A stretch of DNA of 32,000 nucleotides from Methanobrevibacter olleyae. Lineage in GTDB: Archaea > Methanobacteriota > Methanobacteria > Methanobacteriales > Methanobacteriaceae. Below are positions 1 through 29,287 of this stretch, one piece after another. The notes below the pieces were generated by a model. The model saw nothing but the letters and a program-made list of their open reading frames with translations, was not told the DNA's origin and did no database searches. The stretch is from contig NZ_FOTL01000021.1 in the NCBI RefSeq assembly GCF_900114585.1, positions 6,746-38,745 on the forward strand. The letters are read 5' to 3'. The number at the start of each line of letters is the position of its first letter. Position 1 is the stretch's first letter. A program made the translations under genes and the position numbers.

Positions 1-2
1 AA

Positions 3-5135: not shown

Positions 5136-5141
5136 TTATTT

Positions 5142-5786
5142 ATGGTTACATCCGTTCCAGGTAGTGAAATTATAACTTCAGGGCTAAATATGATTTCCCA
5201 GAGTTTACAGATTCCTGTAATAATCTTTTTACTTATCTTTGCAATTTTTGCAGTAATTACATTGGGAGGCCTTGTATCTGAATATAGTTCTCGAAGAAAG
5301 ATTTCAGTAGATTCACTTGAAAAAATCATCTATTCAATAACAAATGCAAACTCCTATGATGAAATCTTAAGCATTGTTAAAAATGCAAGAATATACGAAT
5401 CACAAAAAGTAATTTTAATTAAAGTTTTACGTGCAAATTCATTACCTAGCGAAGCTAGACATACTTTAGCTAAAAAATTAATTGAAGTAGAAGAAGATAA
5501 ATTTACTAAAATAATTGAAAAAACAGATATTGTAACAAAAATTGGCCCCACTCTTGGATTAATGGGTACGCTTATTCCTATGGGTCCGGGACTTGCTGCA
5601 TTAGGTGCTGGTGATGTTAATACATTAGCTAATGCAATCATTGTTGCTTTTGATACAACTGTTGTAGGTATTGGATCTGGTGCTGTTGCATACTTTGTCT
5701 CTAAAGTAAGACGTAGATGGTATGAAGAATATTTATCCGATTTAGATGCTCTAATTGATGTAATATTGGTTAAATTGAAAAATTAG
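5142..5786 (+). CDS. MotA/TolQ/ExbB-family proton-channel protein
   Basis: The AGGTGAT SD overlaps the upstream TGA stop, leaving a 6-nt gap. There is one N-terminal TM and two C-terminal TMs. The family-typical block is KIGPTLGLMGTLIPMGPGLAALG followed by AIIVAFDTTVVGIGSGAVAYF. Confidence 0.8.
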   Translation: MVTSVPGSEIITSGLNMISQSLQIPVIIFLLIFAIFAVITLGGLVSEYSSRRKISVDSLEKIIYSITNANSYDEILSIVKNARIYESQKVILIKVLRANSLPSEARHTLAKKLIEVEEDKFTKIIEKTDIVTKIGPTLGLMGTLIPMGPGLAALGAGDVNTLANAIIVAFDTTVVGIGSGAVAYFVSKVRRRWYEEYLSDLDALIDVILVKLKN

Positions 5787-5797
5787 AGGTTTTTCCA

Positions 5798-6130
5798 ATG
5801 GTTAGAGAAAAAAATAAAAAAAGATTTGCTGAAGGTGAAGATGACCCTATGTCAGGTACAACAAATCTTGTAGATGCAATGCTAGTTATTGCAGTAGGAC
5901 TTTTAATTTTTGTTGTAATTAGTTGGAATATGCAAAGTGTAATATTTCAAGATAATTCTCAAAATCCAAACCAAGCTATTCAAGACTCACAGCAAACCAC
6001 TGAAGTTAGTGAGGGACAAGTATTAAATGAAACCCCAGATACATCTAATACATCAGGAAAAGGATATATGGAAATGGGTAAAGTTTATAAAGATCCTTCA
6101 ACGGGTAAATTGATTATGGTTGAAGAATAA
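5798..6130 (+). CDS. Small single-pass membrane protein, ExbD/TolR-like (DUF2149-like)
   Basis: The GAGGT SD (5786-5790) overlaps the upstream TAG, leaving an 11-nt gap. The N-terminus DPMSGTTNLVDAMLVIAVGLLIFVV resembles the ExbD/TolR N-terminal helix with its conserved Asp. The external domain is short and Q/S/T-rich. Confidence 0.65.
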   Translation: MVREKNKKRFAEGEDDPMSGTTNLVDAMLVIAVGLLIFVVISWNMQSVIFQDNSQNPNQAIQDSQQTTEVSEGQVLNETPDTSNTSGKGYMEMGKVYKDPSTGKLIMVEE

Positions 6131-6420
6131 TTTAATATTTATATATTTTCTTCTATAGTTTCTTCTTTCTTTTCATTATAAAAAAATTATCTTTAATTTT
6201 TCAATTTTTTACTTTTATATTAAAATTATTTTTAATTTATTTATTATTTTTCACAATACTTTTTTAATATTTTTCTCATTTTTCTAATTATTTTTTAATT
6301 TTATAATTTATTTTAGACTTATTTTTAATTCTCTCCCTATTTTACTTATTTTTTTAATTTATAGTTAATTTTATACCTCTTTTTTGATTTATATGATATC
6401 ATATTCTTTTTTTTAAATTT
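6131..6420 (+). terminator. T-rich tract with multiple oligo-T runs downstream of the four-gene cluster (archaeal oligo-T termination signals)
   Basis: The sense strand is strongly T-biased with many T5-T7 runs (for example caatttttt, ctttttt, attttttaatttt, atttttttaattt). The motif TTATTTTT(T)AATT recurs about 4-5 times. Confidence 0.4.
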
Positions 6421-6618
6421 AAATTATTGAGTATTATTTTTTAAGCTAAATTAGGTCATTTAGTAATAATATAATTAATTTTAAATATATTATTAAACAA
6501 TAATATAGTATATATGTAGTAATAATTGTATTCATTTTTTTATTACATATGAAATAGTGAATAATTTTTATTATTTTTAAATTAATTTGCTATTTTTATA
6601 AAAATTTGGAGGAATTTT

Positions 6619-9600
6619 TTGCGAAACAATGTTAAGAATTCATCGTTATTTTTAATATTGCTAATTGTATTAGTTTTATCTATATCTTCGACTTTTGCAC
6701 AAGATTTAGATAATTCCACTGATGATTTAGCTGTTTATAATGATGGTGAATCTATTTCAATTGAAAATCAAGACTATGAATACGAAGATATATCTAGTGT
6801 AAATGATGATGTTTATACTGCAGAGAGTACCTCTGTAGTAAATGATGACGAATATGAAACGGATACTTTATCTGTAGCTAATGAGGGGCCAAATGCTATG
6901 GATACTGTATATAGCGTAAATTATGAAGAAAACTTAGGTTATGGTGAAACTGTCCCACCTATGCCTGAAGTAGATAGTGGTGTTGTTTCAGGAGGTATTG
7001 ATTTCACTGCTGTTAATCCTTGGACTACATCAGGTAATTTAGTTTATACCATTCCAGATGGAATGACAAACCTTAAATCAGCAATTGTAATTGTTAATGT
7101 CTATTCTGGTAGTGGTGCTAATACTTATGCTCTTTATTCTAATGTATCTTTAGATACTAAAAATGGATTAGAGGAATTAGGATATGAAGCATTATACTTT
7201 GATACAACAACTACTAATGACCCTAATGTTTATCTCATCAATGATCATACTACAAAGCAATATTCCGATTGTCAAATGGTTTATAACATCACCAATAAAG
7301 TAAATAGTCTAAGTTCTGGAGATTTAATTAAAATTAATGTTGTTGACTCTCCATATCCAGATAAAAATTTCGATGGAAAAATTAAGTTAATTTCTTTATT
7401 ATTTGCATTTGATGATGGAGATAATGATAAATATGCTTACTGGTTACATGCTGGTCAATTATGGACTCAAGATACTGCTAATTTTGATTTCAATACTCAA
7501 GATTATACCGGTGCAACAAACAATATGACTTTAAGAACTATTGCTTTATCAAGTTCAGTTGCTAATTCTTATAAAATAAACAATATTACAGCTCCTTATG
7601 ACTCATCAAGTCAAGGTTCTTATTATTTAGATATCAAATGGAATAATCTTAGAACTTATTTCAATGAAGGAAATAAGACTAACTTCTGGTATCAAAATAC
7701 TGCTGCTTCATATAAAACAAATGTTGCTTTATTAACTGCAAGCGAACTTGAATCTGAACAACCTTTAACTGAAGTTTATGTTGATTATGCTAATGGTAAT
7801 GATGGTAACCTTGGTACTAGTCTTTCTACTGCTTTCAAAACTATTTCTCATGCCTTAAGTGTTGTAGAAGAAAATGGTATTATTAATATAAATGGCGTTA
7901 ATTATTTAGATGATGTTGATGTTAATGGTTTAAACATTGATAAAAACATTTCAATTATTGGTTTAGGTGATGATGCTACTATTGATGCTAAAAATATTAG
8001 TAGAATATTCAATATCGGCGCTTACACTGTTAACTTATCTAATTTAGCATTTACTAATGCTAATGTTGCTAGTGCTAGTGATAAACGTGGAGGGGCACTA
8101 TGGGTTAATGGTGCTACTTTAACTATCGATAATTGTAAATTTATTAATAACACTGCAGGTGCTAGTTCATCTTATGGTGGAGCTATTAATTTAAAATCAA
8201 CCAGTACAACTATTAAAAACTCATACTTCGAAAACAATTCAGCATTTTATACAGGTGGTGGAATAAATGCTGAAAATAACAATGTCTTATTAAATATTTC
8301 TGATAGTATTTTCACTCTTAATGAAGTTTTAAATACTGGTTGGGCAACTGGTGCTGGAATTTGTGCATATAATACTGTAATAATTGATAGATCCTCATTT
8401 TACGGCAATAAGTTAGCAGAAGGTAAAAATGGTAGGTCTATTAATGAATATTCAACTGGTAATTTAACCATCACTAATTCTATTTTATTAGATGGAACTA
8501 ACTCTGTTTATGTAACAACTGGCCCTACTACTTTAGAAAACAATTGGTGGGGAAATAACGACACTACCAAAGATTCAACTCCTAAAGACTTAGGATACAC
8601 AAATGCAGATCTAAGTTCATACTTATACCTTAATATGACTGCTTTTGCTAGTGGCATGGGTGTAGGTGATACTGCATCTATTAATATTAATTTAGTTTCA
8701 ACTGATGATGAAACAATTAATATAATGAACTTGCCAGCTACACTTACTGCTGTAAATGGTAATGTTAATCCAGAAGAAACTGAACTTGTAAACGGTCTAG
8801 GTTCTGCAGTATACACAATCACAACTGCTGGTGACAATTCTGTAACCGTCCATGTTTTAGGTATTGAAGATACTTATTCATTATCTTCTGAGGATATTAT
8901 TTCTACTGAAGTTGTTTATGTAAATTCTACTGGCGGATCTGATACAAATCCAGGAAATAGTTGGGATAATGCTGTTAAAACAATTGAAAAGGCAATAAGC
9001 ATTGTAGATGATAATGGCACTATTTATGTTGCAGATGGTCTTTATCAATTAAGCGATTCAACTCCTGCAACTGGTATTGCAATAACTAAAAATATTTCTA
9101 TTATTGGCCAAAGTGTAAATGCAGTAATTTCTGGTGGAAATACAAAAAGAATATTCACCATAGGCGTAAATAAAACTTTAAATATCACTAGTTTAACTTT
9201 AACAAATGCTCATGCTTCAGGCTCAGCCTACGACTTTGGTGGAGCTATTTTAATTGAAGATAGCGGAAATACTAATCCTATCGTTGCTGGAAATTTAATA
9301 ATAACTGATTCTGTAATTTCTAACTCCTATGCATCTTATGGTGGTGCTATTGGTACTAATAGAGGAACAATTGATAATATTAACAATGTAACATTTATTA
9401 ACAATAGTGCTTTATCAGGCGGAGTCTTTTATATACAACAAAAAGGAACTTTAACCATTGGGGACAATTGTAAGTTTATAAATAACACTGCTAGTGGTCG
9501 TGGTTCTGTAACTTATGCTCAAGCAAAAGTAACTACTGGTAAAAATAATTTCTTCTATGGAAATATTGCAACTGGAAATTATGGTTACGGTACTGTATTT

Positions 9601-12600
9601 GGTTATGGATTCGAAATAGGTCCAGCTAATGTATTTGTTAATAACAAAGCAACACAAGGAGGAGCATTATATCTCGGCGGTAATTCATTTACTGGATTTG
9701 GTAGTTATTGTATATTTATAAATAGCACAGATGATAATGGTCGCCCAGTTGTAAAACAAAGTGCAGGCCGTGCATTAACTCTTGATAATTGTTATTGGGG
9801 AACTAACACCCCTGATTTCAGTGCTTTATGTAATGGAGCAATAAACTACACTAGTTATTTAATATTAAATATTAGTTCAGATGTAAATAGTGTTCGTGTT
9901 GGAGATAGTGCAGTAATTACTGTTGATTTAACTAAAAACCAAAATGGAACAACTGTTGATATTAACTCACTTCCAAGTGTTCTTCCTTTAATATTCACTG
10001 TTGAAAATGGTAATGTTAACCCTATAGAAACTGAACTTCTAAATGGCATTGGATTAACTGCATATTCCCCTGCCGTAATGGGTGAAGGTTCTGTAACTGC
10101 TAATATTTATGCAATAGCTGAAACTTTAAGCTTAGAAGTATTACCTGAGTTAGGAACTGTATTTGTTAATTACACTGGTGGTTTAGATACTAATGATGGT
10201 AGTAGTTGGGATAATGCTATAAAAACAATAAGTCATGCTTTAGAAATTGTTGGTGAAGGAAAAACAATCTACATTGCAGATGGACTTAACTATTTAGATG
10301 ATTCTACAGCTGATGGTTTAGATATTGGTAAAAATCTTTCTATTGTTGGTATGGGAGATGATGTTGTAATCGATGCGAATAATAATGGTAGAATATTCAG
10401 CATTGGTGCTTATACTGTTAATTTATCTAATTTAATCTTTATTAATGGTAACTCTTCTACTGCTACTGATAAACGTGGTGGTGCTTTATATGTTAATGGT
10501 ACTACATTAATTATTGATAATTGTAAATTCATTAATAACACTGCAGGTACTAAAGCTGCAGCCGGTAATGTTTCAACTTATGCTGGAGCTATTAATTTAA
10601 AATCTTCAACAACCACCATTATCAATTCAGAATTTGAGGGTAATACTGCATGGTCTACTGGTGCTGGCATTAATGCCGAAAATTCAAATGTTTTATTAAA
10701 CATTTCAGATTCAACATTTATAAACAATATACTCTTAAACAATGGTTGGTCTGCAGGAGCTGCAATCTGTGCTTATAATACTGTCATAATTAATAAATCT
10801 GTATTCTATGGTAATAGATTAACTGATGAAACTAGAAATGGTAGAACTATTAATCAATATGGAAATGGTAGTTTAACAATCACTAACTCCATTTTATTAG
10901 ATGGTGAAAAAGGTGTATGGATTGCAGCTGGCCCTACTACTTTAGAAAACAATTGGTGGGGAAATAACAATGCTAACAAAGATACCAATCCAGAAGACTT
11001 AGGATACACAAATGCAAATGTAAACTCATACTTAGTATTATCTTCTAAAATAGAACAAGAAAATATTTACAATGGTGATTTAGTAACAGTTACTACTACT
11101 TTAGAAAACAATGAAATTGAATTACCTATAACATTAAATGTAAATATAGGTGAAATTACACCTAATGAAGCTACCATAACTTCTAGTGAAGTATCTATTT
11201 ATAATGCTACTACTTTAGGTGATGCAGTAATCACCATAGATGTTTTAGGCATTAAAAATGAAATTAATTTCTTTGTAAAAGAAACTCTTCCTAATGTTAA
11301 CATTAGCCAAATTAAAACTCAATGGGCTGATGGCATCTATCCTGGAGTAAACAATACTTTCAATATTACATTAAACAATGGAGGAGATGAAAGTGTTGAA
11401 AATTTAGTACTTGAAGTTTATTCAAATGAAACCGGTGAATTAATTGCTAGTTACACTATTGATTCAATAGTAACTGGAACTTCATCAATTTTAGTAACTG
11501 ATCCTACAATCCGTCCAATAACAGAAGAAAGCCTATGGCCAGCTCCTCAAAATAATAAAATTAAATTTACATTTAATTTAATTAGAGGTGAAGATTTAGT
11601 TACTAGTGTAAGTGTTGATAAAATGCTTGCATATAATGGTTACTTCAATAAAACCTATGCATATGGTGGCCATGATAATATTATTAATAGAAATTACACA
11701 ATTTCTGGAGATATAATCATTGCTACTCAAGATGTAAGTACTTATGGTGATCAATATACAAGATTCAGAAATGAAACTTGGAACATTGAAACACCAGAAG
11801 ATGCAGAAATTGTAAAAGTTTTATTATACTTTAACTATAACTGGGATACATCATTCTTCCCTAATGGTTGGAATTTAACATTTAATGATGTTGATATCCT
11901 TAATGATTATCTCACTCATGAAACTGATAGAGGTAACCTTGGTGGATGGGGAGCATATAATTATGGTCTCTTAGTCTTTGATGTAACAGACTATTACAAA
12001 ACTAATGAAAATAATAGTTTTGTTATAAATAAAACAGGAAATTGTGCATTATATCCATCTACATTATATGTTTTATATAATCTAACTGATAGTGCTTATG
12101 TTAAAGATGTATACTTCTCAGATATCTGTGATGTATATTATCCTAACTACAATCAATTTGGATATGATGACTTACTCAAAACAGTTGTTAACTATAATGA
12201 TATTAATTTAGATAATTTAGCTAATGCTATATGGTATGTATTTACTGGATCAAGTAGTATGAATAATAATTTAACATTTAACGATGGAGTAGTAGTTAAT
12301 CCATTCAATGGTTACACAGCTAATGATTGTCGCCCATACATCTATGATGTAACTAGTTTGATTAAAAATAATAATGAAGCTTGGTTTATCACAGGTACTC
12401 AATCATCAACTACTGTTGCTTATGAACAAGTTTTAGTTGTTGGAAGAATAATTAAAACTGAAACTTCTATCACTGTAGCTAATGACACTGTCAATTTAAC
12501 TTATGGTGATGAATTTGAAATCGGAGCTACATTAACTCCTACAGAAGCTGGTGAATTAACATATACAAGCAGTAACGAATCTGTTGCCATTGTTGAAAAT

Positions 12601-14313
12601 GGTAAAATTATTGCTAAAGCATTCGGAAATGCAATTATAACAGTTTCATTCGAAGGAAACGAATATTACGAGCCTTCAAGTGCTACTATAGACGTAACCG
12701 TTAACAAAAAGGCTGTGAATATTGTTCCTGATCTAGTTCTCAATGATAAGTACTACCCGGGAGTGGTTACTATTATTATTAGATCTGATGTCGATGGTCT
12801 TTATAATGTAACTGTTGGTAAAGATACCGCTGAAGTTAACGTTACTGATGGTTTAGGATATGAATCATTCATAGGAATTGATGCAGGTATACAAAATGCA
12901 ACTGTAAAATTCTTAGGTAATGAAATCTATAATGAAATTACTGTTAATAGAGAATTTGAAATTTTAAAGCAAGTAGTACCTAACTTTAATGTTGAATTTG
13001 GTGATGCAACTTATCCAGATAATGTTACTGTCTTAATCAATGGTCCTTCTGGAACTTATACTGTTAAAATTGACGATGAACACTCTGTTGAAATCGTAGT
13101 TGATGAAGATAATGTTGGAATTGGCAGTATCAGTGGTTTAGCTGCTGGTACTTACTCTAATGTAAATGTATCTTATGGTGGTAATGATAATGTAGAAGAG
13201 GGTTTTAAACTCTACACTATCACAGTTAAAAAACCGGATTCCAAAGAAAACATATCTGATATTATAGAAATTAACACAACTGTTCTTGAAAACTCAACTG
13301 ATACTGTATTTAGTATTATTTTACCTAAAAATGCTACTGGTTACTTATTAGTGGATGTTAATGGTAAACATTATTATGCTCCAGTTGAAAACGGTACTGC
13401 TTCTCTTGCTATCCCAGGATTAGCTCCTGGAAACTACAGTGCAACAGTTACTTACACTGGTGATGATAACTATGCTTCCGTTACAAAGACAACAACTATT
13501 AGTGTTCCTTCAAATGTTCCAGATAATGCTTTTGATATTCCTAAAACCAGTGAAAGCAGTTCCGCAACTTATTCAGTTAAATTACCTCCAGATGCTACTG
13601 GTTATCTTGAAGTAGATGTTGATGGAACTAAATATGTTGCTGCTTTAAATAATGGATTTGCTAGTGTTACTGTAGCTGGTTTATCTGAAGGAAAACATAA
13701 TGTAACCGTTACTTACACTGGTGATGGTAAATACTCTAGTGTTAGAAAATCTACAACTTTAAATGTTCATATTCCTGTATATAAAATTACAAAAAATAAG
13801 AACGTTGCAGCAATTTATTCAGCTAAAACATCTTACAAAGTTCTTATAACTAAAGATGGAAAAGCTGTTGGTGCTGGTGAAAAAGTAACTATCAAATATA
13901 ATGGTAAAACATACACCGTTAAAACTGATAGTAAAGGTTATGCAAGCTTAAAACTTAACACTAAAATAAAAGTCAAAAAATATACTATTACCGCAACATA
14001 CAAAGGTGTAAAAGTATCTAACAAAGTTACAATCAAACACGTAATTAAAGCATCCAACAAAAAAGTCAAAAAGTCCAAAAAAGTTACTAAAGTAAAAGTT
14101 TCCTTGAAAAAAGTTAACGGCAAATATCTTAAAGCTAAAAAACTTAAAATCAAATTCAGTGGAAAAAATTACAAAGTAAAAACCAACAAAAAAGGAGTAG
14201 CTACTTGGAAAGTTAAAAAATCCATGCTTAAAAAACTTAAAGTTGGTAAAAAATACAAATACAAAGTAACTTACGGAAAAGACAGTTTAACTAAAAAATT
14301 AACCATTAAATAA
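6619..14313 (+). CDS. Giant secreted adhesin-like surface protein (2564 aa)
   Basis: TTG start with a GGAGG SD at 6608-6612. Signal peptide MRNNVKNSSLFLILLIVLVLSISSTFA. Reading order: an acidic N-terminal region; module A (about 6969-7755, VSGGIDF...VNVYSGSG...FDGKIKLISLLFAFDDGD); three beta-helix-type units with recurrent NxT/GGA turns, each ending in NNWWG or CYWG (about 7771-11030), each followed by an Ig-like segment; a CARDB-like segment plus module B (about 11290-12450); a Big_2-like domain (about 12465-12705); further Ig-like repeats; and a Lys-rich tail (13768-14310). Modules A and B may be DUF3344-type. Confidence 0.9.
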   Translation: MRNNVKNSSLFLILLIVLVLSISSTFAQDLDNSTDDLAVYNDGESISIENQDYEYEDISSVNDDVYTAESTSVVNDDEYETDTLSVANEGPNAMDTVYSVNYEENLGYGETVPPMPEVDSGVVSGGIDFTAVNPWTTSGNLVYTIPDGMTNLKSAIVIVNVYSGSGANTYALYSNVSLDTKNGLEELGYEALYFDTTTTNDPNVYLINDHTTKQYSDCQMVYNITNKVNSLSSGDLIKINVVDSPYPDKNFDGKIKLISLLFAFDDGDNDKYAYWLHAGQLWTQDTANFDFNTQDYTGATNNMTLRTIALSSSVANSYKINNITAPYDSSSQGSYYLDIKWNNLRTYFNEGNKTNFWYQNTAASYKTNVALLTASELESEQPLTEVYVDYANGNDGNLGTSLSTAFKTISHALSVVEENGIININGVNYLDDVDVNGLNIDKNISIIGLGDDATIDAKNISRIFNIGAYTVNLSNLAFTNANVASASDKRGGALWVNGATLTIDNCKFINNTAGASSSYGGAINLKSTSTTIKNSYFENNSAFYTGGGINAENNNVLLNISDSIFTLNEVLNTGWATGAGICAYNTVIIDRSSFYGNKLAEGKNGRSINEYSTGNLTITNSILLDGTNSVYVTTGPTTLENNWWGNNDTTKDSTPKDLGYTNADLSSYLYLNMTAFASGMGVGDTASININLVSTDDETINIMNLPATLTAVNGNVNPEETELVNGLGSAVYTITTAGDNSVTVHVLGIEDTYSLSSEDIISTEVVYVNSTGGSDTNPGNSWDNAVKTIEKAISIVDDNGTIYVADGLYQLSDSTPATGIAITKNISIIGQSVNAVISGGNTKRIFTIGVNKTLNITSLTLTNAHASGSAYDFGGAILIEDSGNTNPIVAGNLIITDSVISNSYASYGGAIGTNRGTIDNINNVTFINNSALSGGVFYIQQKGTLTIGDNCKFINNTASGRGSVTYAQAKVTTGKNNFFYGNIATGNYGYGTVFGYGFEIGPANVFVNNKATQGGALYLGGNSFTGFGSYCIFINSTDDNGRPVVKQSAGRALTLDNCYWGTNTPDFSALCNGAINYTSYLILNISSDVNSVRVGDSAVITVDLTKNQNGTTVDINSLPSVLPLIFTVENGNVNPIETELLNGIGLTAYSPAVMGEGSVTANIYAIAETLSLEVLPELGTVFVNYTGGLDTNDGSSWDNAIKTISHALEIVGEGKTIYIADGLNYLDDSTADGLDIGKNLSIVGMGDDVVIDANNNGRIFSIGAYTVNLSNLIFINGNSSTATDKRGGALYVNGTTLIIDNCKFINNTAGTKAAAGNVSTYAGAINLKSSTTTIINSEFEGNTAWSTGAGINAENSNVLLNISDSTFINNILLNNGWSAGAAICAYNTVIINKSVFYGNRLTDETRNGRTINQYGNGSLTITNSILLDGEKGVWIAAGPTTLENNWWGNNNANKDTNPEDLGYTNANVNSYLVLSSKIEQENIYNGDLVTVTTTLENNEIELPITLNVNIGEITPNEATITSSEVSIYNATTLGDAVITIDVLGIKNEINFFVKETLPNVNISQIKTQWADGIYPGVNNTFNITLNNGGDESVENLVLEVYSNETGELIASYTIDSIVTGTSSILVTDPTIRPITEESLWPAPQNNKIKFTFNLIRGEDLVTSVSVDKMLAYNGYFNKTYAYGGHDNIINRNYTISGDIIIATQDVSTYGDQYTRFRNETWNIETPEDAEIVKVLLYFNYNWDTSFFPNGWNLTFNDVDILNDYLTHETDRGNLGGWGAYNYGLLVFDVTDYYKTNENNSFVINKTGNCALYPSTLYVLYNLTDSAYVKDVYFSDICDVYYPNYNQFGYDDLLKTVVNYNDINLDNLANAIWYVFTGSSSMNNNLTFNDGVVVNPFNGYTANDCRPYIYDVTSLIKNNNEAWFITGTQSSTTVAYEQVLVVGRIIKTETSITVANDTVNLTYGDEFEIGATLTPTEAGELTYTSSNESVAIVENGKIIAKAFGNAIITVSFEGNEYYEPSSATIDVTVNKKAVNIVPDLVLNDKYYPGVVTIIIRSDVDGLYNVTVGKDTAEVNVTDGLGYESFIGIDAGIQNATVKFLGNEIYNEITVNREFEILKQVVPNFNVEFGDATYPDNVTVLINGPSGTYTVKIDDEHSVEIVVDEDNVGIGSISGLAAGTYSNVNVSYGGNDNVEEGFKLYTITVKKPDSKENISDIIEINTTVLENSTDTVFSIILPKNATGYLLVDVNGKHYYAPVENGTASLAIPGLAPGNYSATVTYTGDDNYASVTKTTTISVPSNVPDNAFDIPKTSESSSATYSVKLPPDATGYLEVDVDGTKYVAALNNGFASVTVAGLSEGKHNVTVTYTGDGKYSSVRKSTTLNVHIPVYKITKNKNVAAIYSAKTSYKVLITKDGKAVGAGEKVTIKYNGKTYTVKTDSKGYASLKLNTKIKVKKYTITATYKGVKVSNKVTIKHVIKASNKKVKKSKKVTKVKVSLKKVNGKYLKAKKLKIKFSGKNYKVKTNKKGVATWKVKKSMLKKLKVGKKYKYKVTYGKDSLTKKLTIK
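7771..11030 (+). repeat. Three intragenic beta-helix units; units 1 and 3 share long near-identical nucleotide stretches
   Basis: The 39-mer ggccctactactttagaaaacaattggtggggaaataac occurs at 8521-8559 and 10930-10968. gataattgtaaatt(t/c)attaataacactgcaggt occurs at 8128 and 10516. The offset is 2388-2409 bp, and unit 2 (about 8908-9850) is more divergent. Confidence 0.85.
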
Positions 14314-14326
14314 TAAACAATTTTTT

Positions 14327-14359
14327 GGAAGTATTAATTTACTTCCATTTTTTATTTTT
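14327..14359 (+). terminator. Stem-loop plus T-run downstream of the first adhesin-like gene
   Basis: ggaagta-ttaatt-tacttcc forms a perfect 7-bp stem (14327-14346). It is preceded by tttttt and followed by attttttattttt. Confidence 0.55.
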
Positions 14360-14400
14360 AAAATTGGCTAAATAAAAATAAAATAAAAGATTTTGTTTTT

Positions 14401-14484
14401 TGTTATAATTATATAATTAAATGAAAAATAAAAAAATACTTAATTTTTTGTATAATTACATAATTAAATGAAAAATAAAAAAAT
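14401..14484 (+). repeat. Imperfect 47-bp direct repeat that duplicates the TATA-like leader and start codon region of the second adhesin-like gene
   Basis: tgt(t)ataatta(t/c)ataattaaatgaaaaataaaaaaat occurs at 14401-14437 and 14449-14484. The true gene start ttaatgaaaaataaaaat at 14509 is a third partial copy. Confidence 0.9.
14421..14471 (+). CDS. Upstream ORF 1, 16 codons (MKNKKILNFLYNYIIK); translation unproven
   Basis: I read it codon by codon. Its TGA stop (14469-14471) overlaps the ATG of upstream ORF 2 (14468-14470) as ATGA. Confidence 0.3.
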   Translation: MKNKKILNFLYNYIIK

Positions 14485-14512
14485 TATATTTGAGGAAAAT
14501 GAGGAGATTTAA
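14468..14512 (+). CDS. Upstream ORF 2, 14 codons (MKNKKIIFEENEEI); translation unproven
   Basis: Its TAA stop (14510-14512) shares the A at 14512 with the ATG of the main gene (TAATG). The GAGGAG SD of the main gene lies inside this ORF (14501-14506). Confidence 0.3.
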   Translation: MKNKKIIFEENEEI

Positions 14513-17500
14513 TGAAAAATAAAAATATTTTATTAGCATTATTTTTGCTTTTATTAGCTTGTTTAAGTATACAAACAATTTCTGCTGAAAATATCGCTGA
14601 TAACCTTAATGAAATTGAAGCACTTGATTCATATTCAGATGACTTAAGTGTAAATACTCATTCAAATGATTTGAATATAGATTCCTATAAAAAATCAGAA
14701 CTATTATCCAATTCAAATCAAGAAACAATACCTGATGAAGAAAGAAATATATTGATCAACACAAACCAAGAAACAATCCTAAAGCAAAACACAAACCAAG
14801 AAACAATATCTGCACAAGGTAGTGATCCTTTACCTAATGTTGAGAATGGAACTGTTTCTGGAGGGATTGATTTTGTAAATATTCACCCATGGGCCCCTTC
14901 TGATGCTATTAATGGTAATAAAGGAAATATCACATATAACATTCCAAGTAATGCAAACATAAAATCTGCATATATCTATGTAAATATCTACTCTGGAAGT
15001 GGTGGAACCGCTTATGGTGCTTATGCAAATACTACCATTACAACTGCAAATGGTGAACAACTTCTCGGAAATGAATATTTATGGACATCTACTTCATCAC
15101 AAGATGGAGTTAATTATATTGTTAATGACCATATTACAAGATGTTATTCAGACTATATGATATTTTATAATGTTACAGAGATGCTTCAAGGTTTAAATGG
15201 TAGTTCTGTATCAGTAGATGTAATTTCTTACCCAATACCAGATAAGAGTTTTGATGGTAGAATTAAATTAATATCTCTATTTGTTGCATGGGACGATGGA
15301 GATGAGGATGAAATTTATTATTGGCTAAATGCAGGTCAAGCATGGAGTGATGATACTGAAAATGGTTTATCCCATAGCTTTGAGAATTTACCTGAGCTTA
15401 ATTATCTTGAAAAATTATCTACTTTAATAAATGTAGGAGCTTCAAGCACTGATGCAATGTATTATCTCGATGGAAGTATTCTGTTTTCCGAAAGTGAAGA
15501 TGATGAATATTTAAGTGGAGCATATTATCAATATCATAAATGGGATATTAGCCATTACATTATACCTGATAGTTTAGAATTAACTTATAAACCAGTTGGT
15601 GGAGCTTATGGCCCATCTTTTAAAGAGTTAATTTCCATTTTGACAATTCAAGACATTCCAACTTATGAGGAGGATGTAGCTGAAATTTCTATAACTCCAG
15701 AATTTACTGAAATTCCTTGTGCTTATGCAGGTACTAATAATACTTTAACTATTAAAATCACCACTAAAGCAGGAAATTACACTGTTAGATTATTAGCTGA
15801 TGGTCATGTTGTAAAACAAACTGAAATGAATTTGAATAATGGAACTAATCTTCTATTATTAACAGATTCTACTATTAGACCAGTTGATGAGTTTACTGTT
15901 AATGGTGAAGAGAATGAAAAAGTTAATTATACTGTTGAAGTTCTATCAAGAGGCAATTTAATCAATTCATCATCAATTATTCTTCCTATTTTGTACAATG
16001 GTTATTTAGGTAAAGATCTAGCTTATCCAAGTGGAGGGATTGAATCTTTCTTAAATATCACCATTAATGGAGATATTGTAATTGATATTCAAAATTATTC
16101 CCAGTATATAAGCCATAATATTCTTAATCGTAGCGAAGTTTGGAATGTTGATTTAGATGCTAATTCAAACATTGTAAAATCTTTTATTTATATTCCATAT
16201 TATGAGTTTAATTCTAAAACTTATGATGAAGACATTTATATGTTTAATGTTACATTTAATAATGTAAATATTAGTCCAATTGAATTATATAAAGACCATA
16301 GCAATTTAGGTATAGATTATTATTCTGGTTATGGAGTATTGCTTTATGATGTAACTAATCTAATTAGGAATGGGGAAAATGTTTTAGAATTGAATAAGAA
16401 ATTTGACACCCCTGCTGTTTACCCAAGTGCATTAATTTACATGTATAACACTACTCTAAGCAATTATATTAAAGAAATTTTTATTTATAATGGTGCTGAT
16501 TTACTTGAAAATATAAATAATCTCGCTAATAGAACTGTCCATAGTGATAGCGAAATTAATGTTAATTCACAGCTAGTATCAAATGCAAGTCTTTATGTTT
16601 TTGCAGGAGGTCCGCAAAATAACGAAGGAGATTTAATATTTAATGATGAAGTATACGAGAATATTTGGAATGGAACAATGGCATCTAATGAAGCATATTC
16701 TTTAGATATTACTAATAGTCTAAGAGATAATAATTCTATTTCTTTTCTAGCAACAGGTTCTAGAATTATAGCATTACAACAGATCATGGTTCTTACTAAA
16801 AATTTGGACATGTTAGATATTATATTAGAAAGCGAATATCCAGACACTTGTTATGCAGGTACAAATAATTCCATATTTGCAAATATTGCAGCTAATAGTG
16901 AAAAAAGGCTAACAGCAAGATTATTAGCTGATGGTGAAATTCTTAATGAAAGTGAAATTGATTTAATTTATGGTTTTAATGAATTTATATTTGTTGATTC
17001 CACCATTAGGACAGCTGATGAGTTTAGTGTTAATGGTGCTCAAAATAATATTGTGAATTATACTCTCCAATTATTATCTGATGATGGAATAATAGCTAAT
17101 AAGTCAATTTATCTTAACATTTTATATAATGGTTATCTATCTAAAGATTTAGCCTATCCTAAAGGAGCTATTGAATCTTTCTTAAATATCACCATCAATG
17201 GAGATATTGTAATTGATGTTAAAAATGCTTCATCATATATGAGTGATTTTGATATTGAACGAACTGATATTTGGAAAATTGATTTAGATAATAAATCTAG
17301 AATTGTTAAAGCTTTTGTTTATGTTCCATATGAATGGTGTAATATTAATCTCATAACAGAAAATGAAGACATATTTAATGTTAAATTTAATAATAATGAA
17401 ATAAGCCCTATTGCATGGTATAGAGATCAAAGTAATTTAGGGCAATATGGCAAATATGGTTATGGTTTATTTGTTTATGATGTTACTAATTTAGTTCTTA

Positions 17501-19335
17501 ATGGCAATAATTCATTTATATTAAATAAAATAGAACCTACTCCGAGAGTTTATCCATCTACATTAGTTTACATCTACAACACTACAGGTAGCTCTGTAAT
17601 TAAAAATATTTATATTTCTAATGGTGCTGATTTACTCTCAAAAGATCCTAATAGATTAGTTCAAATGAAATCAACAATCGATGTAGATTCTATAGCTGAT
17701 GTGGCTAAACTATATATTTTTGCAGCTAATGCTCAAGATGGGGAAGGGGATATTATTTTCAATGATGAAATCTATGAAAATGTATGGAATGGTTCTACTA
17801 CCACCACTAGTTTATACACTTTAAATATTTCTAATACAATAAAAAATAATAATAATTTATCCTTTGTAGTAAGAAACGGTTCAATTTTAGCATTACAACA
17901 AATGATCATCACTACTCAAAAAGCTCAAAGCCAAATAATTGCATCTGATTTAACAACAGTTTATAATAGTAATGATACTTTAGTTATAGGTTTAAATGAG
18001 CCTAATGGAATTCCTATTTCAAATGCAAATTTAACTGTAGTTTTCAATGGCAATACAAATATTTTAACCACAAATAATGAAGGACAAATTAGTTTAGATA
18101 TTCCACCTACACTAAGTCCAAATACTTATGATGTAGATATATCCTATGAAGGAGATGATAGTCACAATGAATCAACTGCTAAGGTTAAAGTAACTATTGA
18201 AAAAATAGCAACTAAAATTATAGCATCTGATTTAAGAACAGTTTATAAAGATAGTGGTACTTTAGTTATAGGTTTAAATGAGTCTAATGGAATTCCTATT
18301 TCAAATTCAAATTTAACTGTAGTTTTCAATGGCAATACAAATATTTTAACCACAGATGACAATGGAGAAATTAGTTTAGATATTCCACCTACACTAAGTC
18401 CAAATAGTTATGATGTAGATATATCCTATGAAGGAGATGATATTCATAAAGAATCCTCCCTTAAAGTTAAAGTAATTGTTGAAAAGAGCCCAACTACTAT
18501 TACTGCCCCTAGTGTAACAACAGTTTATAATACCAATAAAAAATTGCTTGTCACTTTAAAAGATAGCGGCGAAAATGCTATTGCCAATGCCAAAGTGACC
18601 GTTGTTTTAAATGGCGCTTCAAAAGTCTTAACAACTAATGCTAATGGCCAAGCTAGTTTAGCTATTCCACCTACACTAAGTCCAAATAGTTATGATGTAG
18701 ATATTTCATACAGTGGAAATGATATTCATAAAGAATCCTCCCTTAAAGTTAAAGTAATTGTTGAAAAGAGCCCAACTGTCATTACTGCCCCTAGTGTAAC
18801 AACAGTTTATAATACCAATAAAAAATTGCTTGTCACTTTAAAAGATAGCGACGGAAATGCTATTGCCAATGCCAAAGTGACCGTTGTTTTAAATGGCGCT
18901 TCAAAAGTCTTAACAACTAATGCTAATGGCCAAGCTAGTTTAGCTATTCCAAGTAATCTAGTTCCTAAAACTTATACTGCTACCATTAGCTATCCTGGTG
19001 ATGGTAATTACATTAAATCATCATTTAGTACTAAAGTATTGGTTAAAAAAGCTTCTGTTAAATTAGCTGCAGCTAAAAAAACCTTTAAAGCCAAAGTTAA
19101 AACTAAAAAATATACTGTTACTTTAAAAAATAATAAAAATAAAGTAATGAAAAAAGTTAAGCTCACATTAAAACTTAAAGGTAAAACCTATAAAGCAAGT
19201 ACTAATACTAAGGGTAAAGCTACCTTTAAAATTAAAAATTTAAGTAAAAAAGGAAGATATACTGCTAAAGTTATTTACAAAGGCAATAAATACTTTAACA
19301 AATTAACTAAAAAAGTTAAAATTAAAATTAAATAA
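14512..19335 (+). CDS. Secreted adhesin-like surface protein (1607 aa), paralogue of the upstream gene
   Basis: GAGGAG SD. Signal peptide MKNKNILLALFLLLLACLSIQTISA. Module A (about 14839-15660) is homologous to that of the upstream gene (VSGGIDF, YVNIYSGSGG, FDGRIKLISLFVAWDDGDEDE). Two CARDB-like plus module B copies follow, then four 94-aa Ig-like repeats and a Lys-rich tail (19030-19332). Confidence 0.9.
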   Translation: MKNKNILLALFLLLLACLSIQTISAENIADNLNEIEALDSYSDDLSVNTHSNDLNIDSYKKSELLSNSNQETIPDEERNILINTNQETILKQNTNQETISAQGSDPLPNVENGTVSGGIDFVNIHPWAPSDAINGNKGNITYNIPSNANIKSAYIYVNIYSGSGGTAYGAYANTTITTANGEQLLGNEYLWTSTSSQDGVNYIVNDHITRCYSDYMIFYNVTEMLQGLNGSSVSVDVISYPIPDKSFDGRIKLISLFVAWDDGDEDEIYYWLNAGQAWSDDTENGLSHSFENLPELNYLEKLSTLINVGASSTDAMYYLDGSILFSESEDDEYLSGAYYQYHKWDISHYIIPDSLELTYKPVGGAYGPSFKELISILTIQDIPTYEEDVAEISITPEFTEIPCAYAGTNNTLTIKITTKAGNYTVRLLADGHVVKQTEMNLNNGTNLLLLTDSTIRPVDEFTVNGEENEKVNYTVEVLSRGNLINSSSIILPILYNGYLGKDLAYPSGGIESFLNITINGDIVIDIQNYSQYISHNILNRSEVWNVDLDANSNIVKSFIYIPYYEFNSKTYDEDIYMFNVTFNNVNISPIELYKDHSNLGIDYYSGYGVLLYDVTNLIRNGENVLELNKKFDTPAVYPSALIYMYNTTLSNYIKEIFIYNGADLLENINNLANRTVHSDSEINVNSQLVSNASLYVFAGGPQNNEGDLIFNDEVYENIWNGTMASNEAYSLDITNSLRDNNSISFLATGSRIIALQQIMVLTKNLDMLDIILESEYPDTCYAGTNNSIFANIAANSEKRLTARLLADGEILNESEIDLIYGFNEFIFVDSTIRTADEFSVNGAQNNIVNYTLQLLSDDGIIANKSIYLNILYNGYLSKDLAYPKGAIESFLNITINGDIVIDVKNASSYMSDFDIERTDIWKIDLDNKSRIVKAFVYVPYEWCNINLITENEDIFNVKFNNNEISPIAWYRDQSNLGQYGKYGYGLFVYDVTNLVLNGNNSFILNKIEPTPRVYPSTLVYIYNTTGSSVIKNIYISNGADLLSKDPNRLVQMKSTIDVDSIADVAKLYIFAANAQDGEGDIIFNDEIYENVWNGSTTTTSLYTLNISNTIKNNNNLSFVVRNGSILALQQMIITTQKAQSQIIASDLTTVYNSNDTLVIGLNEPNGIPISNANLTVVFNGNTNILTTNNEGQISLDIPPTLSPNTYDVDISYEGDDSHNESTAKVKVTIEKIATKIIASDLRTVYKDSGTLVIGLNESNGIPISNSNLTVVFNGNTNILTTDDNGEISLDIPPTLSPNSYDVDISYEGDDIHKESSLKVKVIVEKSPTTITAPSVTTVYNTNKKLLVTLKDSGENAIANAKVTVVLNGASKVLTTNANGQASLAIPPTLSPNSYDVDISYSGNDIHKESSLKVKVIVEKSPTVITAPSVTTVYNTNKKLLVTLKDSDGNAIANAKVTVVLNGASKVLTTNANGQASLAIPSNLVPKTYTATISYPGDGNYIKSSFSTKVLVKKASVKLAAAKKTFKAKVKTKKYTVTLKNNKNKVMKKVKLTLKLKGKTYKASTNTKGKATFKIKNLSKKGRYTAKVIYKGNKYFNKLTKKVKIKIK
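15670..17931 (+). repeat. Intragenic tandem duplication of about 1131 bp (CARDB-like plus module B, 2 copies)
   Basis: LYNGYLGKDLAYPSGGIESFLNITINGDIVIDIQN (nt about 15991) matches LYNGYLSKDLAYPKGAIESFLNITINGDIVIDVKN (nt about 17122). The offset is 1131 bp (377 codons), and the boundaries are approximate. Confidence 0.8.
17941..19068 (+). repeat. Four tandem 282-bp (94-codon) Ig-like repeats with mosaic near-identity
   Basis: gcatctga occurs at 17941 and 18223. gatattcataaagaatcc occurs at 18439 and 18721. ccacctacactaagtccaaata occurs at about 18105, 18387 and 18669. Copies 1/2 and 3/4 are pairwise nearly identical, and 18439-18669 versus 18721-18951 differ at only a handful of bases. Confidence 0.92.
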
Positions 19336-20310: not shown

Positions 20311-21288
20311 CTATCTTTCAGCCGAATAACTAATCTTGAAGCCTAATTTCCCTAAAAGTTTCAGGTCTTCTTCTAGTCCCACTCCATCAGTTGTTAACAT
20401 ATCCCCTAGAATTGCCGCATTAGCTCCAGACTGGAATGCTTTTCTACCATTATCCCCCAATAGTGCTCTTCCACCAGCCATACGAATATAAGCATCTGGA
20501 TTGATAAATCTAAAAATTCCAATTAATCTACAAGCTTCATCATTAGATAAAATCTCATTATTCTCTACAGGAGTTCCTTTAATCGGATTTAAAATATTAA
20601 TAGGTATGGATTTAACTCCAAGGTCTCTTAGCTCTAATGCTAAATCAATCCTGTCTTCAAAGCTTTCACCCATTCCAAATATTCCGCCACTACAAATCAT
20701 AAGATTTTCATTATCTATCAAGTTGATAGTGTCTAATTTTTCATCATAAGAATGAGTTGTGCAAATCTCTTTAAAATAATCTCTTGAGCTTTCTAAATTA
20801 TTATGGATTCTATCTACACCAACATCATTTAATCTAGCTATTTGATCTTTAGTTAAAAGACCTAATGAAACGCATATCTTAATATCATCATTTGATTCAG
20901 TTAATTCTTTAATCAAATCAGACAGTTGATTAAATTCTTTTTCATTTACTTTTCTACCTGAAGCTACATAGGATATTCTTTTAAAGCCTGCACTATAAAT
21001 AGTTAAAGTTTTTTCTTTTAATTCCTCCTCAGATAAAAGAGGATAAATTTCTATATCTGTATTATAATAATTAGATTGAGCACAGAATTTACAATTTTCA
21101 CTACATCTTCCACTTTTTACATTGATTATGCTACATGCATCGAATATATTTCCACAAAATGATTGTCTTATTTCATTTGCTGCATTTGTTAAATCATCTA
21201 ATGGCACATCAACAAGATTTAATGCATCTTCTTTAGTAACTTTGTAATTATTTAATACTTTATTTTTTAGCTCAGCAAGATCAAACAT
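20311..21288 (-). CDS. bioB: Biotin synthase (radical SAM)
   Basis: CSENCKFC radical-SAM CxxxCxxC motif, the RIHNNLES block and 325-aa length are BioB-like. It lies directly upstream of bioD. Confidence 0.9.
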   Translation of the reverse strand: MFDLAELKNKVLNNYKVTKEDALNLVDVPLDDLTNAANEIRQSFCGNIFDACSIINVKSGRCSENCKFCAQSNYYNTDIEIYPLLSEEELKEKTLTIYSAGFKRISYVASGRKVNEKEFNQLSDLIKELTESNDDIKICVSLGLLTKDQIARLNDVGVDRIHNNLESSRDYFKEICTTHSYDEKLDTINLIDNENLMICSGGIFGMGESFEDRIDLALELRDLGVKSIPINILNPIKGTPVENNEILSNDEACRLIGIFRFINPDAYIRMAGGRALLGDNGRKAFQSGANAAILGDMLTTDGVGLEEDLKLLGKLGFKISYSAER

Positions 21289-21340
21289 AATAATACCTAA
21301 AAATAATAATACCCAAAAATAATAATACCTATTTAAATAA
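21289..21340 (-). promoter_or_regulatory. bioB leader: a TATA-like box followed by three 16-nt tandem copies of an SD-containing unit
   Basis: The minus strand reads TTATTTAAAT AGGTATTATTATTTTT GGGTATTATTATTTTT AGGTATTATT ATG. TTTAAATA resembles the archaeal TATA consensus. Confidence 0.4.
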
Positions 21341-22206: not shown

Positions 22207-22360
22207 ATAACCACCATCTAAATGAAATTTATGAAAAATAACCAGTATAAATTATTAAAATTTTATATTTTAATTTATTATTTAAATTAAATGATATTTT
22301 AAAACTAATATCTATTTATATTATTTATAATATATAATAATTTTTTAAAATAATTAAAAA

Positions 22361-22500
22361 TAAAATAAATAAAAATAAAATAACTAAAAAATGAGAAAAA
22401 CTGATAAAAAAAATAAAAATAAAATAACTAAAAATAAAATAACTAAAAATAAAATAAATAAAAAATGAGAAAAACTGATAAAAAAATAAAAATATAATAA
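22361..22500. repeat. A-rich nested direct repeats between hef and trmI (T-rich on the gene-sense strand)
   Basis: The exact 22-mer atgagaaaaactgataaaaaaa occurs at 22391-22412 and 22465-22486 (period 74). It is embedded in repeated ataaaataa(c/a)taaaaa units. On the minus strand these form many oligo-T runs immediately 3' of hef. Confidence 0.85.
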
Positions 22501-22542
22501 CTAAAAAAAGATAAATTAATAAAAATAGGTAGCAATAATTAT

Positions 22543-29244: not shown

Positions 29245-29287
29245 AATAAATAATAAAAATTTATAAAAAGGAGAATAAAAATAAAAA

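Follow-up and report, generated by a model that had tools for sequence, protein, structure and literature searches.

An adhesin-like gene of the archaeon Methanobrevibacter olleyae is preceded by two short open reading frames (ORFs) that are chained to each other and to the gene by stop/start overlaps, and the locus raises the question of whether this chain controls translation of the gene or is a side product of the way in which its leader arose. Rumen and gut methanogens have dozens of adhesin-like proteins, and M. olleyae strain YLM1 has 64 of them (PMC4824261). The leader lies in a 32,000-nt stretch of M. olleyae DNA that is called the window below, and the parts of the leader and the gene itself are on its + strand.

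The adhesin-like gene (14512–19335) encodes a protein of 1607 aa with a signal peptide (MKNKNILLALFLLLLACLSIQTISA), DUF3344 domains and Ig-like repeats (Pfam), and its Shine-Dalgarno motif, GAGGAG at 14501–14506, is positioned 5 nt before ATG 14512. Orthologue N-termini start at the codon homologous to this ATG, a start conserved in ten orthologues, and a G-rich motif is found 3–8 nt before the homologous start in every orthologue inspected. Among the called proteins, that of L017 carries a 15-aa N-terminal extension, and P0059 is cut short. An exact look-up of the 1607-aa protein returned no record, protein searches with its N-terminal 463 aa and 200 aa found no near-identical fragments, and genomes and metagenomes scanned with the same 463 aa gave only relatives of at most 65% identity. 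The copy in strain YLM1 encodes 1513 aa and is 93.5% identical in the coding region; when other adhesin-like genes of YLM1 were searched for, this orthologue was the only one of them among the 120 matches listed. A mosaic of the window and YLM1 downstream of the gene was ruled out, as BioD, BioB and Hef are 99.1–99.9% identical. Upstream, another adhesin-like gene (6619–14313) is followed at 14326–14359 by a hairpin (GGAAGTAT-loop-ACTTCC) and a T-run that resemble an intrinsic terminator. The hairpin folds with −10.4 kcal/mol (z = −4.9) and is the sole terminator-like site in 14200–14700, with none in shuffled sequence; its sequence is identical in L017 and near-identical in L001 and L023.

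A tandem array and its overlapping ORFs

The leader has a G+C content of 13% and contains a tandem array of a 47-nt unit in 2.4 copies at 14369–14484 (Tandem Repeats Finder score 165, 87% matches), consisting of a degenerate copy 0 and copies 1 and 2. With head-to-tail, imperfect copies detected beyond chance expectation, it is a minisatellite. The original prediction had pointed to a three-fold repetition of the start motif, and this repetition is real and stems from tandem duplication: the 17-nt motif TAAATGAAAAATAAAAA has three matches with at most 2 mismatches against 0.33 expected, a number reached in 0 of 100 shuffles. The copies at 14404–14437 and 14451–14484 are 97% identical across 34 nt. 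Copy 0 (14369–14417; TAAAT-AAAAATAAAA), which had been overlooked, has lost the G of its ATG and aligns to copy 1 with a score of 56, compared with a null of 21 ± 4. The real start (14509–14525) has the last 17 nt of the repeat module in common, the upstream copies being identical to it at 17 of 17 positions, and ATTAAATGAAAAATAAAAAAAT matches the real start of the orthologue L001 at 21 of 22. The upstream copies resemble gene starts, either former or alternative ones. Orthologous gene starts excepted, the 47-nt unit was not found elsewhere in the window or in the fetched loci, and a dispersed repeat was rejected.

Upstream ORF 1 (14421–14471; 16 codons, MKNKKILNFLYNYIIK) ends in a TGA at 14469–14471 that overlaps ATG 14468 as ATGA, and upstream ORF 2 (14468–14512; 14 codons, MKNKKIIFEENEEI) ends in a TAA at 14510–14512 whose last A is shared with the main ATG as TAATG. 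The gene's GAGGAG falls within upstream ORF 2. The predicted ATGs at 14421, 14468 and 14512, both overlaps and the location of GAGGAG can all be read directly from the sequence, and the overlaps, ATGA at 14468–14471 and TAATG at 14510–14514, are of the kind that characterizes termination-reinitiation pairs. A Shine-Dalgarno motif is absent from both upstream ORFs, and the 17–18 nt preceding each of ATG 14421 and ATG 14468 contain not a single G. A third small ORF that had escaped notice (14499–14522; MRRFNEK, then stop) crosses the main start out of frame and has a counterpart, MRGFDEK and stop, in L023.

The three ATGs are spaced by 47 and 44 nt, both of which equal 2 mod 3, and the stop/start contexts at the next ATGs are TAAATGA and TAATG. 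The overlaps exist because these spacings are 2 mod 3 and a stop in the matching frame is present at each next ATG; ATGA and TAATG are thus an arithmetic by-product of tandem duplication. The A7 runs of the leader (14430–14436 and 14477–14483) are nothing unusual for the window, which has 29 runs of at least 7 A or T, 18 of these within 3.2 kb of intergenic DNA. A frameshift by slippage in an A7 run that would join upstream ORF 2 to the main gene was ruled out, the main frame having a TGA at 14500–14502.

Tandem arrays are a general property of the window, where they cover 37% of intergenic but 4% of coding bases and are present in 9 of the 10 intergenic regions that exceed 60 nt. Besides the leader array, two of them span gene starts: a 54-nt duplication at 4357–4468 creates an upstream ORF in which codons 1–14 of the next gene are repeated, and an array of 3.1 copies of a 16-nt unit at 21283–21331 crosses the start of bioB.

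Conservation of the leader and candidate core promoters

Within the species, the comparison comprised the window strain and YLM1. Their leaders are 100% identical, including the length of the repeat tract, and since the two strains differ here at just 6 of 15,786 positions this identity is uninformative on selection and has little power as regards tract length. Among other species, the leaders of L001, L002, L008, L018, L021 and L022 have no start copies. The closest relative, L017, has a 52-nt duplication of its own whose two copies are distinguished solely by a run of A8 in one and A10 in the other; the ATG of upstream ORF 2 (14468) aligns with its in-frame ATG 1501, the ATG at −45 is in frame with the gene, the overlaps are absent and clear palindromes are missing. 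L023 has the same TATA doublet, with its elements 46 nt apart and about 460 nt from the gene start; its first upstream ORF stops 4 nt short of the next ATG and its second about 410 nt short of the gene, and its array includes short chains of ATGA-overlapping mini-ORFs. Array sizes in the species sharing this leader type amount to 2–3 × 44–47 nt in M. olleyae, 2 × 52 nt in L017 and at least 8 × 37–39 nt plus an assembly gap in L023. The overlaps are accordingly not maintained in L017 and L023, and conservation of the upstream peptides was not found among these relatives (MKNKKILNFLYNYIIK and MKNKKIIFEENEEI versus MENIINLVFDIII and MRNELQTQKYFTYK in L023 and MSDKKNYF in L017).

What is shared with L023 is a pair of blocks. 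Block 1 (14394–14423; a T-run, the TATA palindrome TAATTATATAATTA at 14406–14419, and AAATG) is identical at 26 of 30 positions and is a candidate distal core promoter; block 2 (14444–14470; a T6 run, the TATA palindrome TAATTACATAATTA at 14453–14466, and AAATG) is identical at 23 of 27 and is a candidate proximal one, with a T-to-C change inside the TATA core of its palindrome. In this single species pair, identity is 87 and 85% in the TATA blocks but 42, 55 and 45% in the spacer and the A-rich tails, the pattern expected of promoter elements that are conserved over flanking non-coding DNA. The suggestion of alternative promoters, a side remark in the original prediction, has become the best-supported functional reading of the leader.

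In methanogen promoters as mapped in M. jannaschii, the TATA box reads TWTATATA, its 3′ edge is 23 ± 2 nt from the transcription start in 94% of cases, transcripts begin with A or G after a T at −1, and the G's of the ribosome-binding site are at +14 to +19 (PMC2699501). The M. olleyae leader fits this arrangement, but such matches are frequent in the DNA of the window: matches of at least 7/8 to TWTATATA occur at 1.7% of intergenic positions, or about 3 expected per 198 nt, so that the scan alone does not discriminate. At 14408–14415, ATTATATA matches at 7 of 8 positions and predicts a start at about 14438–14439 (A14438 after T14437). For the proximal block, TTTGTATA at 14447–14454 (7/8) predicts a start at 14478 and ATTACATA at 14455–14462 (6/8) one at A14486, after T14485. 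From position 14486, GAGGAG would be at +16 to +21, approximating the G-rich +14 to +19 of M. jannaschii leaders, and the main ATG at +27. By the same geometry, each upstream ATG is followed, after about 17 nt, by a predicted transcription start. A weaker TATA-like stretch is present at 14349–14362. As a recurring operator, TAATTATATAATTA was not significant (7 matches versus 3.7 expected; 7 of 100 shuffles as high), a sigma-70 promoter scan of the leader gave background level with a model irrelevant to an archaeon, and no literature on Methanobrevibacter transcription starts was found.

At the RNA level, 13800–15000 had no Rfam match at E-values up to 1, and the leader folds had z-scores of −1.7 (a long A-U helix between the copies, not significant), +0.2 and +0.2. 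Leaders beginning at the predicted transcription starts have no structure, and the ribosome-binding site is therefore predicted to be free.

Weighing the explanations

The reading we favour, with a probability of roughly 0.6, is that of a tandemly duplicated module of core promoter and pseudo-start in which the upstream ORFs are incidental. Tandem duplication within the very AT-rich leader generated the feature, the repeated module extending from a T-run over a palindromic TATA box (TAATTAYATAATTA) and AAATG to an A-rich tail that resembles the Lys-rich start of the gene. The leader has two good copies (14404–14437 and 14451–14484) and a decayed third upstream, with the real start matching the last 17 nt of the module, and the two upstream ORFs and their overlaps follow from the copy spacing. 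The constrained parts are the two TATA-palindrome blocks, most likely tandem archaeal core promoters; that they drive transcription, and where it begins, is what we infer here. Transcription from the proximal promoter would start at about 14478–14486 and provide a normal leader of 26–34 nt with the AGGAG ribosome-binding site, and from the distal promoter it would begin at about 14438. Each upstream ATG would then sit between its own TATA box and transcription start, such that ATG 14421 is on neither transcript and ATG 14468 is carried by the longer one alone, with no ribosome-binding site in front of it.

Some observations speak against such a promoter module. Among them are the frequency of TATA matches in this DNA, block conservation with a single other species, L023, the missing palindromes of L017 and the T-to-C change in the proximal TATA core. 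With its doublet about 460 nt from the start, L023 would have a very long leader; the upstream copies, identical to the gene's start at 17/17 positions, could be mere pseudo-starts that play no part as promoters; and the TATA-like stretch at 14349–14362, or read-through of the terminator, could join all three ATGs on one RNA. The strongest alternative, which we regard as unlikely, takes the array to be a neutral minisatellite of decaying pseudo-starts, with transcription from elsewhere (such as the T-run/A-run region past the terminator, or read-through) and all ATGs lying in a long leader whose upstream ORFs are essentially untranslated and of no consequence. The wealth of tandem arrays in the intergenic DNA of the window, the start-spanning duplications at unrelated genes, the likeness of the copies to real gene starts, including that of L001, and the commonness of chance TATA-like matches all favour it, as does the observation that upstream ORFs in M. 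jannaschii leaders occur at the frequency expected at random and have no ribosome-binding sites (PMC2699501). Decay does not, however, predict TATA blocks that stand out from 42–55% identity in the neighbouring leader in the comparison with L023, nor a proximal block at approximately the distance of a methanogen promoter from the ribosome-binding site and ATG.

The relay originally proposed, in which translation of upstream ORF 1 leads to reinitiation at upstream ORF 2 through ATGA and then at the adhesin-like gene through TAATG, tuning or gating its translation, is the explanation to which we give least credence. Both overlap types are present, coupling was strict in 13 of 14 tested ATGA/TGATG pairs in Haloferax volcanii and Escherichia coli (PMC6728339), and the L023 array likewise holds mini-ORF chains. 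Repeat spacings of 2 mod 3 nevertheless yield overlaps automatically, and the main ORF has a strong AGGAG of its own 5 nt upstream, which argues against dependence on translation of upstream ORFs that have no ribosome-binding site. A lack of conserved ORFs or overlaps in relatives, which the original prediction itself took as counting against it, is what the leaders show in L017, where the upstream ATG is in frame, and in L023, where the stops are elsewhere and a unit length varying between 37 and 39 nt means that the chain is repeatedly broken. Methanogen promoter geometry, moreover, places the likely transcription starts 3′ of each upstream ATG, excluding ATG 14421 and probably ATG 14468 from the main mRNA.

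Only marginally more credible, and still very improbable, is a contingency locus in which the adhesin-like gene would be switched or tuned in its expression within populations as the leader changes in copy number or in the length of its A-runs, in the way known for repeats in bacterial promoters and leaders. Unit and copy number vary widely across the three species with this leader type, the L017 copies differ in A-run length alone, and the target is a surface protein gene that differs from the YLM1 copy in its coding region. Set against this are the identical leaders of the two M. olleyae strains, the similar arrays at housekeeping genes, the lack of rapid slippage in 37–52-nt units that are present in few copies, and the literature, in which neither phase variation nor repeat-mediated expression variation was found to be reported for methanogens. 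The homopolymer switch of the original prediction has gained no support either, A7 runs being common in the window and the two strains, with identical leaders, too close to be informative. A bolder version, improbable in our estimation though somewhat less so, regards the leader as a hypervariable, self-copying minisatellite of promoter and start whose copy number determines a set of tandem promoters and a mini-ORF train that sets or switches surface-protein expression. If true, archaea would have an equivalent of the contingency loci of bacteria, for which no methanogen report was found.

Should the promoter-module reading hold, the leader is what repeat-prone, AT-rich intergenic DNA ordinarily produces, and its main value is one of caution, in that the arithmetic of duplication can by itself yield ATGA/TAATG chains. 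Its importance would be greater if the leader arrays of this adhesin-like lineage modulate expression.

Comparison with known systems

The hmw genes of Haemophilus influenzae, with 7-bp repeats upstream, and nadA of Neisseria meningitidis, with upstream TAAA repeats, are bacterial contingency loci. Similar to these, the M. olleyae leader has tandem repeats between promoter and adhesin start and a copy number that depends on the lineage. Its units, however, are long (37–52 nt), M. olleyae has few of them, housekeeping genes of the window have arrays of this kind too, and no within-species polymorphism was seen in the two near-identical strains.

Termination-reinitiation coupling has been described at overlapping ATGA/TGATG gene pairs in archaea and bacteria (Huber et al. 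2019, PMC6728339; Huber et al. 2023, PMC10666635), and the M. olleyae leader resembles these pairs in having co-directional ORFs with overlaps of 4 nt (ATGA) and 1 nt (TAATG). The pairs studied by Huber et al. are real, conserved protein genes on one mRNA, whereas the upstream ORFs of M. olleyae are duplication products of 14–16 codons with no ribosome-binding site. They are also not conserved and are probably off the main transcript, and the gene that follows them is equipped with a ribosome-binding site of its own.

Multiple core promoters, with BRE and TATA box, are known from methanogens, with 131 promoters for 107 genes in M. jannaschii (Zhang, Li and Olsen 2009, PMC2699501), and the M. 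olleyae leader is similar in its near-consensus TATA boxes, the proximal one lying about as far from the ribosome-binding site and ATG as expected. Unlike the M. jannaschii promoters, the M. olleyae candidates are 97%-identical tandem copies 47 nt apart, and their activity is inferred. In size range, imperfect copies and non-coding location, the array is like the ordinary minisatellites of AT-rich prokaryotic intergenic DNA, being one of many in the window; it differs from them in that its unit includes the start-codon context, and hence gives rise to upstream ORFs, and in that this unit is partly conserved across species.

Origin of the repeated start and its overlaps

The adhesin-like gene at 14512-19335 encodes a protein of 1607 aa that combines a signal peptide with DUF3344 domains and Ig-like repeats. 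It follows a gene at 6619-14313 that also encodes an adhesin-like protein and is ended by a significant hairpin and T-run at 14326-14359 (-10.4 kcal/mol, z = -4.9). The leader measures 198 nt and has 13% G+C. Reading the sequence confirmed the coordinates and strings of the original prediction for the small ORFs of this leader. Upstream ORF 1 (ATG 14421, 16 codons) ends in a TGA that overlaps ATG 14468 (ATGA), and upstream ORF 2 (ATG 14468, 14 codons) ends in a TAA whose last A is the first base of the main ATG at 14512 (TAATG); GAGGAG lies at 14501-14506, 5 nt ahead of the main ATG. A third small ORF, from ATG 14499 (MRRFNEK and a stop), spans the main start out of frame, and the minus strand here holds only a 40-codon AT-rich ORF. 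The claimed threefold repetition of the 17-nt start motif TAAATGAAAAATAAAAA also held: two occurrences are exact and the third has a single mismatch, where 0.33 would be expected by chance, and three was never reached in the shuffles. The underlying 47-nt array, scored 165 by Tandem Repeats Finder, spans 14369-14484 with 2.4 copies at 87% matches; it extends far enough upstream to include a decayed copy 0 (TAAAT-AAAAATAAAA) that had been overlooked, and 14404-14437 and 14451-14484 are 97% identical across 34 nt. The repetition in the leader is real and non-random.

From each ATG to the next the distance is 47 and then 44 nt, and either value leaves a remainder of 2 when divided by 3. Given a spacing of 47 and the context TAAATGA, an ORF that is still open must end at the TGA of ATGA, and given a spacing of 44 and the context TTTAATG, an ORF starting 44 nt upstream must end at the TAA of TAATG. 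The open frames are undemanding, the chance of 13-15 codons without a stop being ~0.2-0.3 per ORF when ~40% each of A and T is assumed, and the overlap geometry therefore needs no selective explanation. The first 22 nt of upstream ORF 1 match the true start of the orthologue at locus L001 at 21 of 22 positions, and this ORF may be open by descent.

G is absent from the 17-18 nt preceding ATG 14421 and ATG 14468, so neither upstream ATG has a Shine-Dalgarno motif. The main ATG is preceded, at 5-nt spacing, by AGGAG, which is complementary to the CCUCC of the archaeal 16S 3' end. A G-rich motif stands ahead of every orthologue start inspected (the start codon is TTG in L021), and orthologue N-termini start at the homologous codon except in L017, with a called 15-aa extension, and in the orthologue protein P0059, which is cut short. 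In the mapped leaders of M. jannaschii, upstream ORFs number 232 against a random expectation of 226, and just one carries a ribosome-binding site (PMC2699501).

Leaders of relatives and of strain YLM1

Leaders lacking copies of their own start precede the relatives at L001 (60% protein identity to the window gene, 59-nt leader), L002 and L007 (59%, 94 nt), L008 (65%, 236 nt), L022 (63%, 234 nt), L018 (67%, at least 339 nt) and L021 (66%, at least 201 nt), the upstream gene end being off the contig in the last two. The leader type of M. olleyae is common to two relatives, L017 (70%) and L023 (63%), whose homologous leaders both come with the hairpin and gene end found upstream in M. olleyae. 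L017, the closest non-conspecific orthologue, carries its own independent 52-nt duplication (1449-1536), with the unit ATGAGCGATAAAAAAAA(AA)CTATTTCTAAAAACAAA at 1449 and 1501; the copies differ only in A8 versus A10, and homopolymer length has thus changed since the duplication. ATG 14468 aligns to the L017 ATG 1501, which is at -45 and in frame with the gene, hence the N-terminal extension of the gene caller (MSDKKKTISKNKGDK-MKYK...); this protein is probably called 15 codons too early. The 608-nt leader of L023, on a metagenome contig, combines a doublet as in M. olleyae (TAATTATATAATTAAATGG and TATAATTATATAATCAAATGAG, spaced 46 nt) with a large array at 1065-1521 of at least eight units, a lower bound because a run of Ns (assembly gap) interrupts it. 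Each unit of 37-39 nt comprises the ribosome-binding-site region of the gene, the ATG and the first ~18 nt, and, as unit length changes along the array, mini-ORFs that overlap by ATGA join into short chains and separate again. The L023 upstream ORFs differ from those of M. olleyae in sequence and stop position. With L017 in frame and L023 using other stops, the overlap geometry is not conserved in relatives, an outcome that the original prediction itself had held to speak against it.

Other leader elements were seen among the relatives. In a distant paralogue/orthologue group (41-43% identity), AAAAAAGTATTAC...GTAATACTTTTAATAAAC is conserved just upstream of the start (L003 2925-2975; L004 195-245; L005 435-485; L010 about 1440-1490; L012 about 1945-1995); this imperfect inverted repeat (GTATTAC / GTAATAC), about 30-60 nt ahead of the ATG, may form a conserved hairpin in the leader or serve as an operator. 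By eye only, a module TTATGA(W)TAATTTTAAATATTTTATTATTC(W)AATAATA was found ~80-100 nt upstream of the start in three orthologue leaders free of start copies (L008 1895-1945; L018 225-285; L022 1390-1445), and may be the promoter of that leader type.

Positions 1-15786 of the window are 99.96% identical to the second M. olleyae strain, YLM1 (CP014265, 2.2 Mb), which carries identical versions of several window proteins; other window proteins fall in the same 90%-identity cluster as named YLM1 proteins. The two strains do not differ in the leader or over the gene's first 1275 nt. Divergence in the 3' part of the gene is much faster than around it: the YLM1 orthologue has 1513 aa against 1607, with only 93.5% identity over the aligned part, and identity is 99.1-99.9% for the neighbouring BioD, BioB and Hef. 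Ig-like coding repeats of 282 nt (94 aa) occupy 17933-18951.

Candidate tandem promoters

Compared with L023, the T-run, TATA palindrome and AAATG are 87% identical in copy 1 (26/30, 14394-14423) and 85% in copy 2 (23/27, 14444-14470), against 42% for the spacer after the terminator (14361-14393) and 55 and 45% for the A-rich tails (14424-14443 and 14471-14484). This pattern points to the TATA-like palindromes, rather than the bodies of the ORFs, as the constrained part. M. olleyae is a rumen methanogen and an archaeon, and the appropriate promoter model is therefore BRE plus TATA box rather than sigma-70. M. jannaschii promoters have a TWTATATA box whose 3' edge lies 23 +/- 2 nt from the transcription start in 94%, with T at -1 and A or G at +1. 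The G's of the ribosome-binding site fall at +14 to +19, and genes there often have two or more promoters (131 promoters for 107 genes; PMC2699501). No transcription-start map for the genus Methanobrevibacter was found in the literature, and the leader was scanned with the M. jannaschii-derived rules. The candidates were ATTATATA (14408-14415, 7/8, predicted start ~14438-14439 with T14437 and A14438), TTTGTATA (14447-14454, 7/8, ~14478) and ATTACATA (14455-14462, 6/8, ~14486 with T14485 and A14486), although such TATA-like matches are common in this DNA, those of at least 7/8 occurring at 1.7% of intergenic positions.

The two palindromes are candidate tandem core promoters. Counted from the predicted start at 14486, GAGGAG would span +16 to +21 and the ATG would begin at +27, as is ordinary for a methanogen leader. 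Both upstream ATGs follow their TATA boxes by 5-6 nt and precede the predicted starts by ~17 nt; owing to this position, ATG 14421 would be on neither predicted transcript and ATG 14468 on the longer one only, where it would lack a ribosome-binding site. Transcription could instead start near 14380, or read through the terminator. Alternative promoters, a side remark of the original prediction, are the best functional reading, the promoter role itself being inferred. No Rfam family matches the leader, and folding of its RNA gave no significant structure.

Arrays across the window and known systems

Tandem Repeats Finder returned 30 rows for the entire window; arrays cover 37% of intergenic and 4% of coding bases and are present in 9/10 intergenic regions >60 nt. 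Besides the leader array, two span gene starts. At the DUF2162 gene (4428-5135), a 54-nt tandem duplication (4357-4468, 2.1 copies, 96% identity) repeats the TAA of the upstream gene, a GGTG ribosome-binding site, the ATG and the first 14 codons. It yields an upstream ORF, MDVISILWQLGILS and a stop (4374-4418), which has the same ribosome-binding site as the gene and stops 9 nt ahead of the real ATG; the 63-nt intergenic spacing is the same in YLM1, in a stretch 99.96% identical. This is a cleaner start-spanning duplication than the main leader, with an upstream ORF that is probably translated. The bioB start (21288, minus strand) is covered by a 16-nt x 3.1 array (21283-21331, unit GGTATTATTATTTTT-like) that abuts the ATG, with the GGT of a putative ribosome-binding site in each copy. 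Large A-rich compound arrays occupy intergenic DNA at 22346-22527 (periods 15, 44, 59 and 74), adjoining the Hef gene end, and at 29133-29287 (periods 9, 39 and 48), adjoining the gene at 29288-30535. The other adhesin-like gene starts at 6619 with TTG, preceded by GGAGG as ribosome-binding site; its leader (6196-6608) holds several tandem arrays of periods 19-32, one stopping at the ribosome-binding site, and three near-matches to the palindrome TAATTATATAATTA (6296, 6464 and 6482). A or T runs of at least 7 number 18 in 3.2 kb of intergenic DNA; the two A7 runs of the main leader are copies of one another and unremarkable.

The leader fits best a tandem duplication (minisatellite) that has doubled a candidate core promoter; methanogen genes with several promoters are known. 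The termination-reinitiation relay originally proposed is unsupported, given a geometry that is not conserved, upstream ORFs without a Shine-Dalgarno motif and overlaps that follow from spacing arithmetic. A further reading, in which a hypervariable promoter-and-start minisatellite of this gene lineage modulates surface-protein expression in methanogens, seems improbable. The leader shows no polymorphism between the window strain and YLM1, a comparison of low power between two near-identical strains.

The overlaps resemble those of termination-reinitiation gene pairs (PMC6728339). Unlike in such pairs, the overlap in the leader is not conserved in relatives, and translation of the upstream ORF and co-transcription are doubtful; the leader is for these reasons not classed with them. 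The likeness to bacterial contingency loci is confined to a repeat tract ahead of an adhesin gene.
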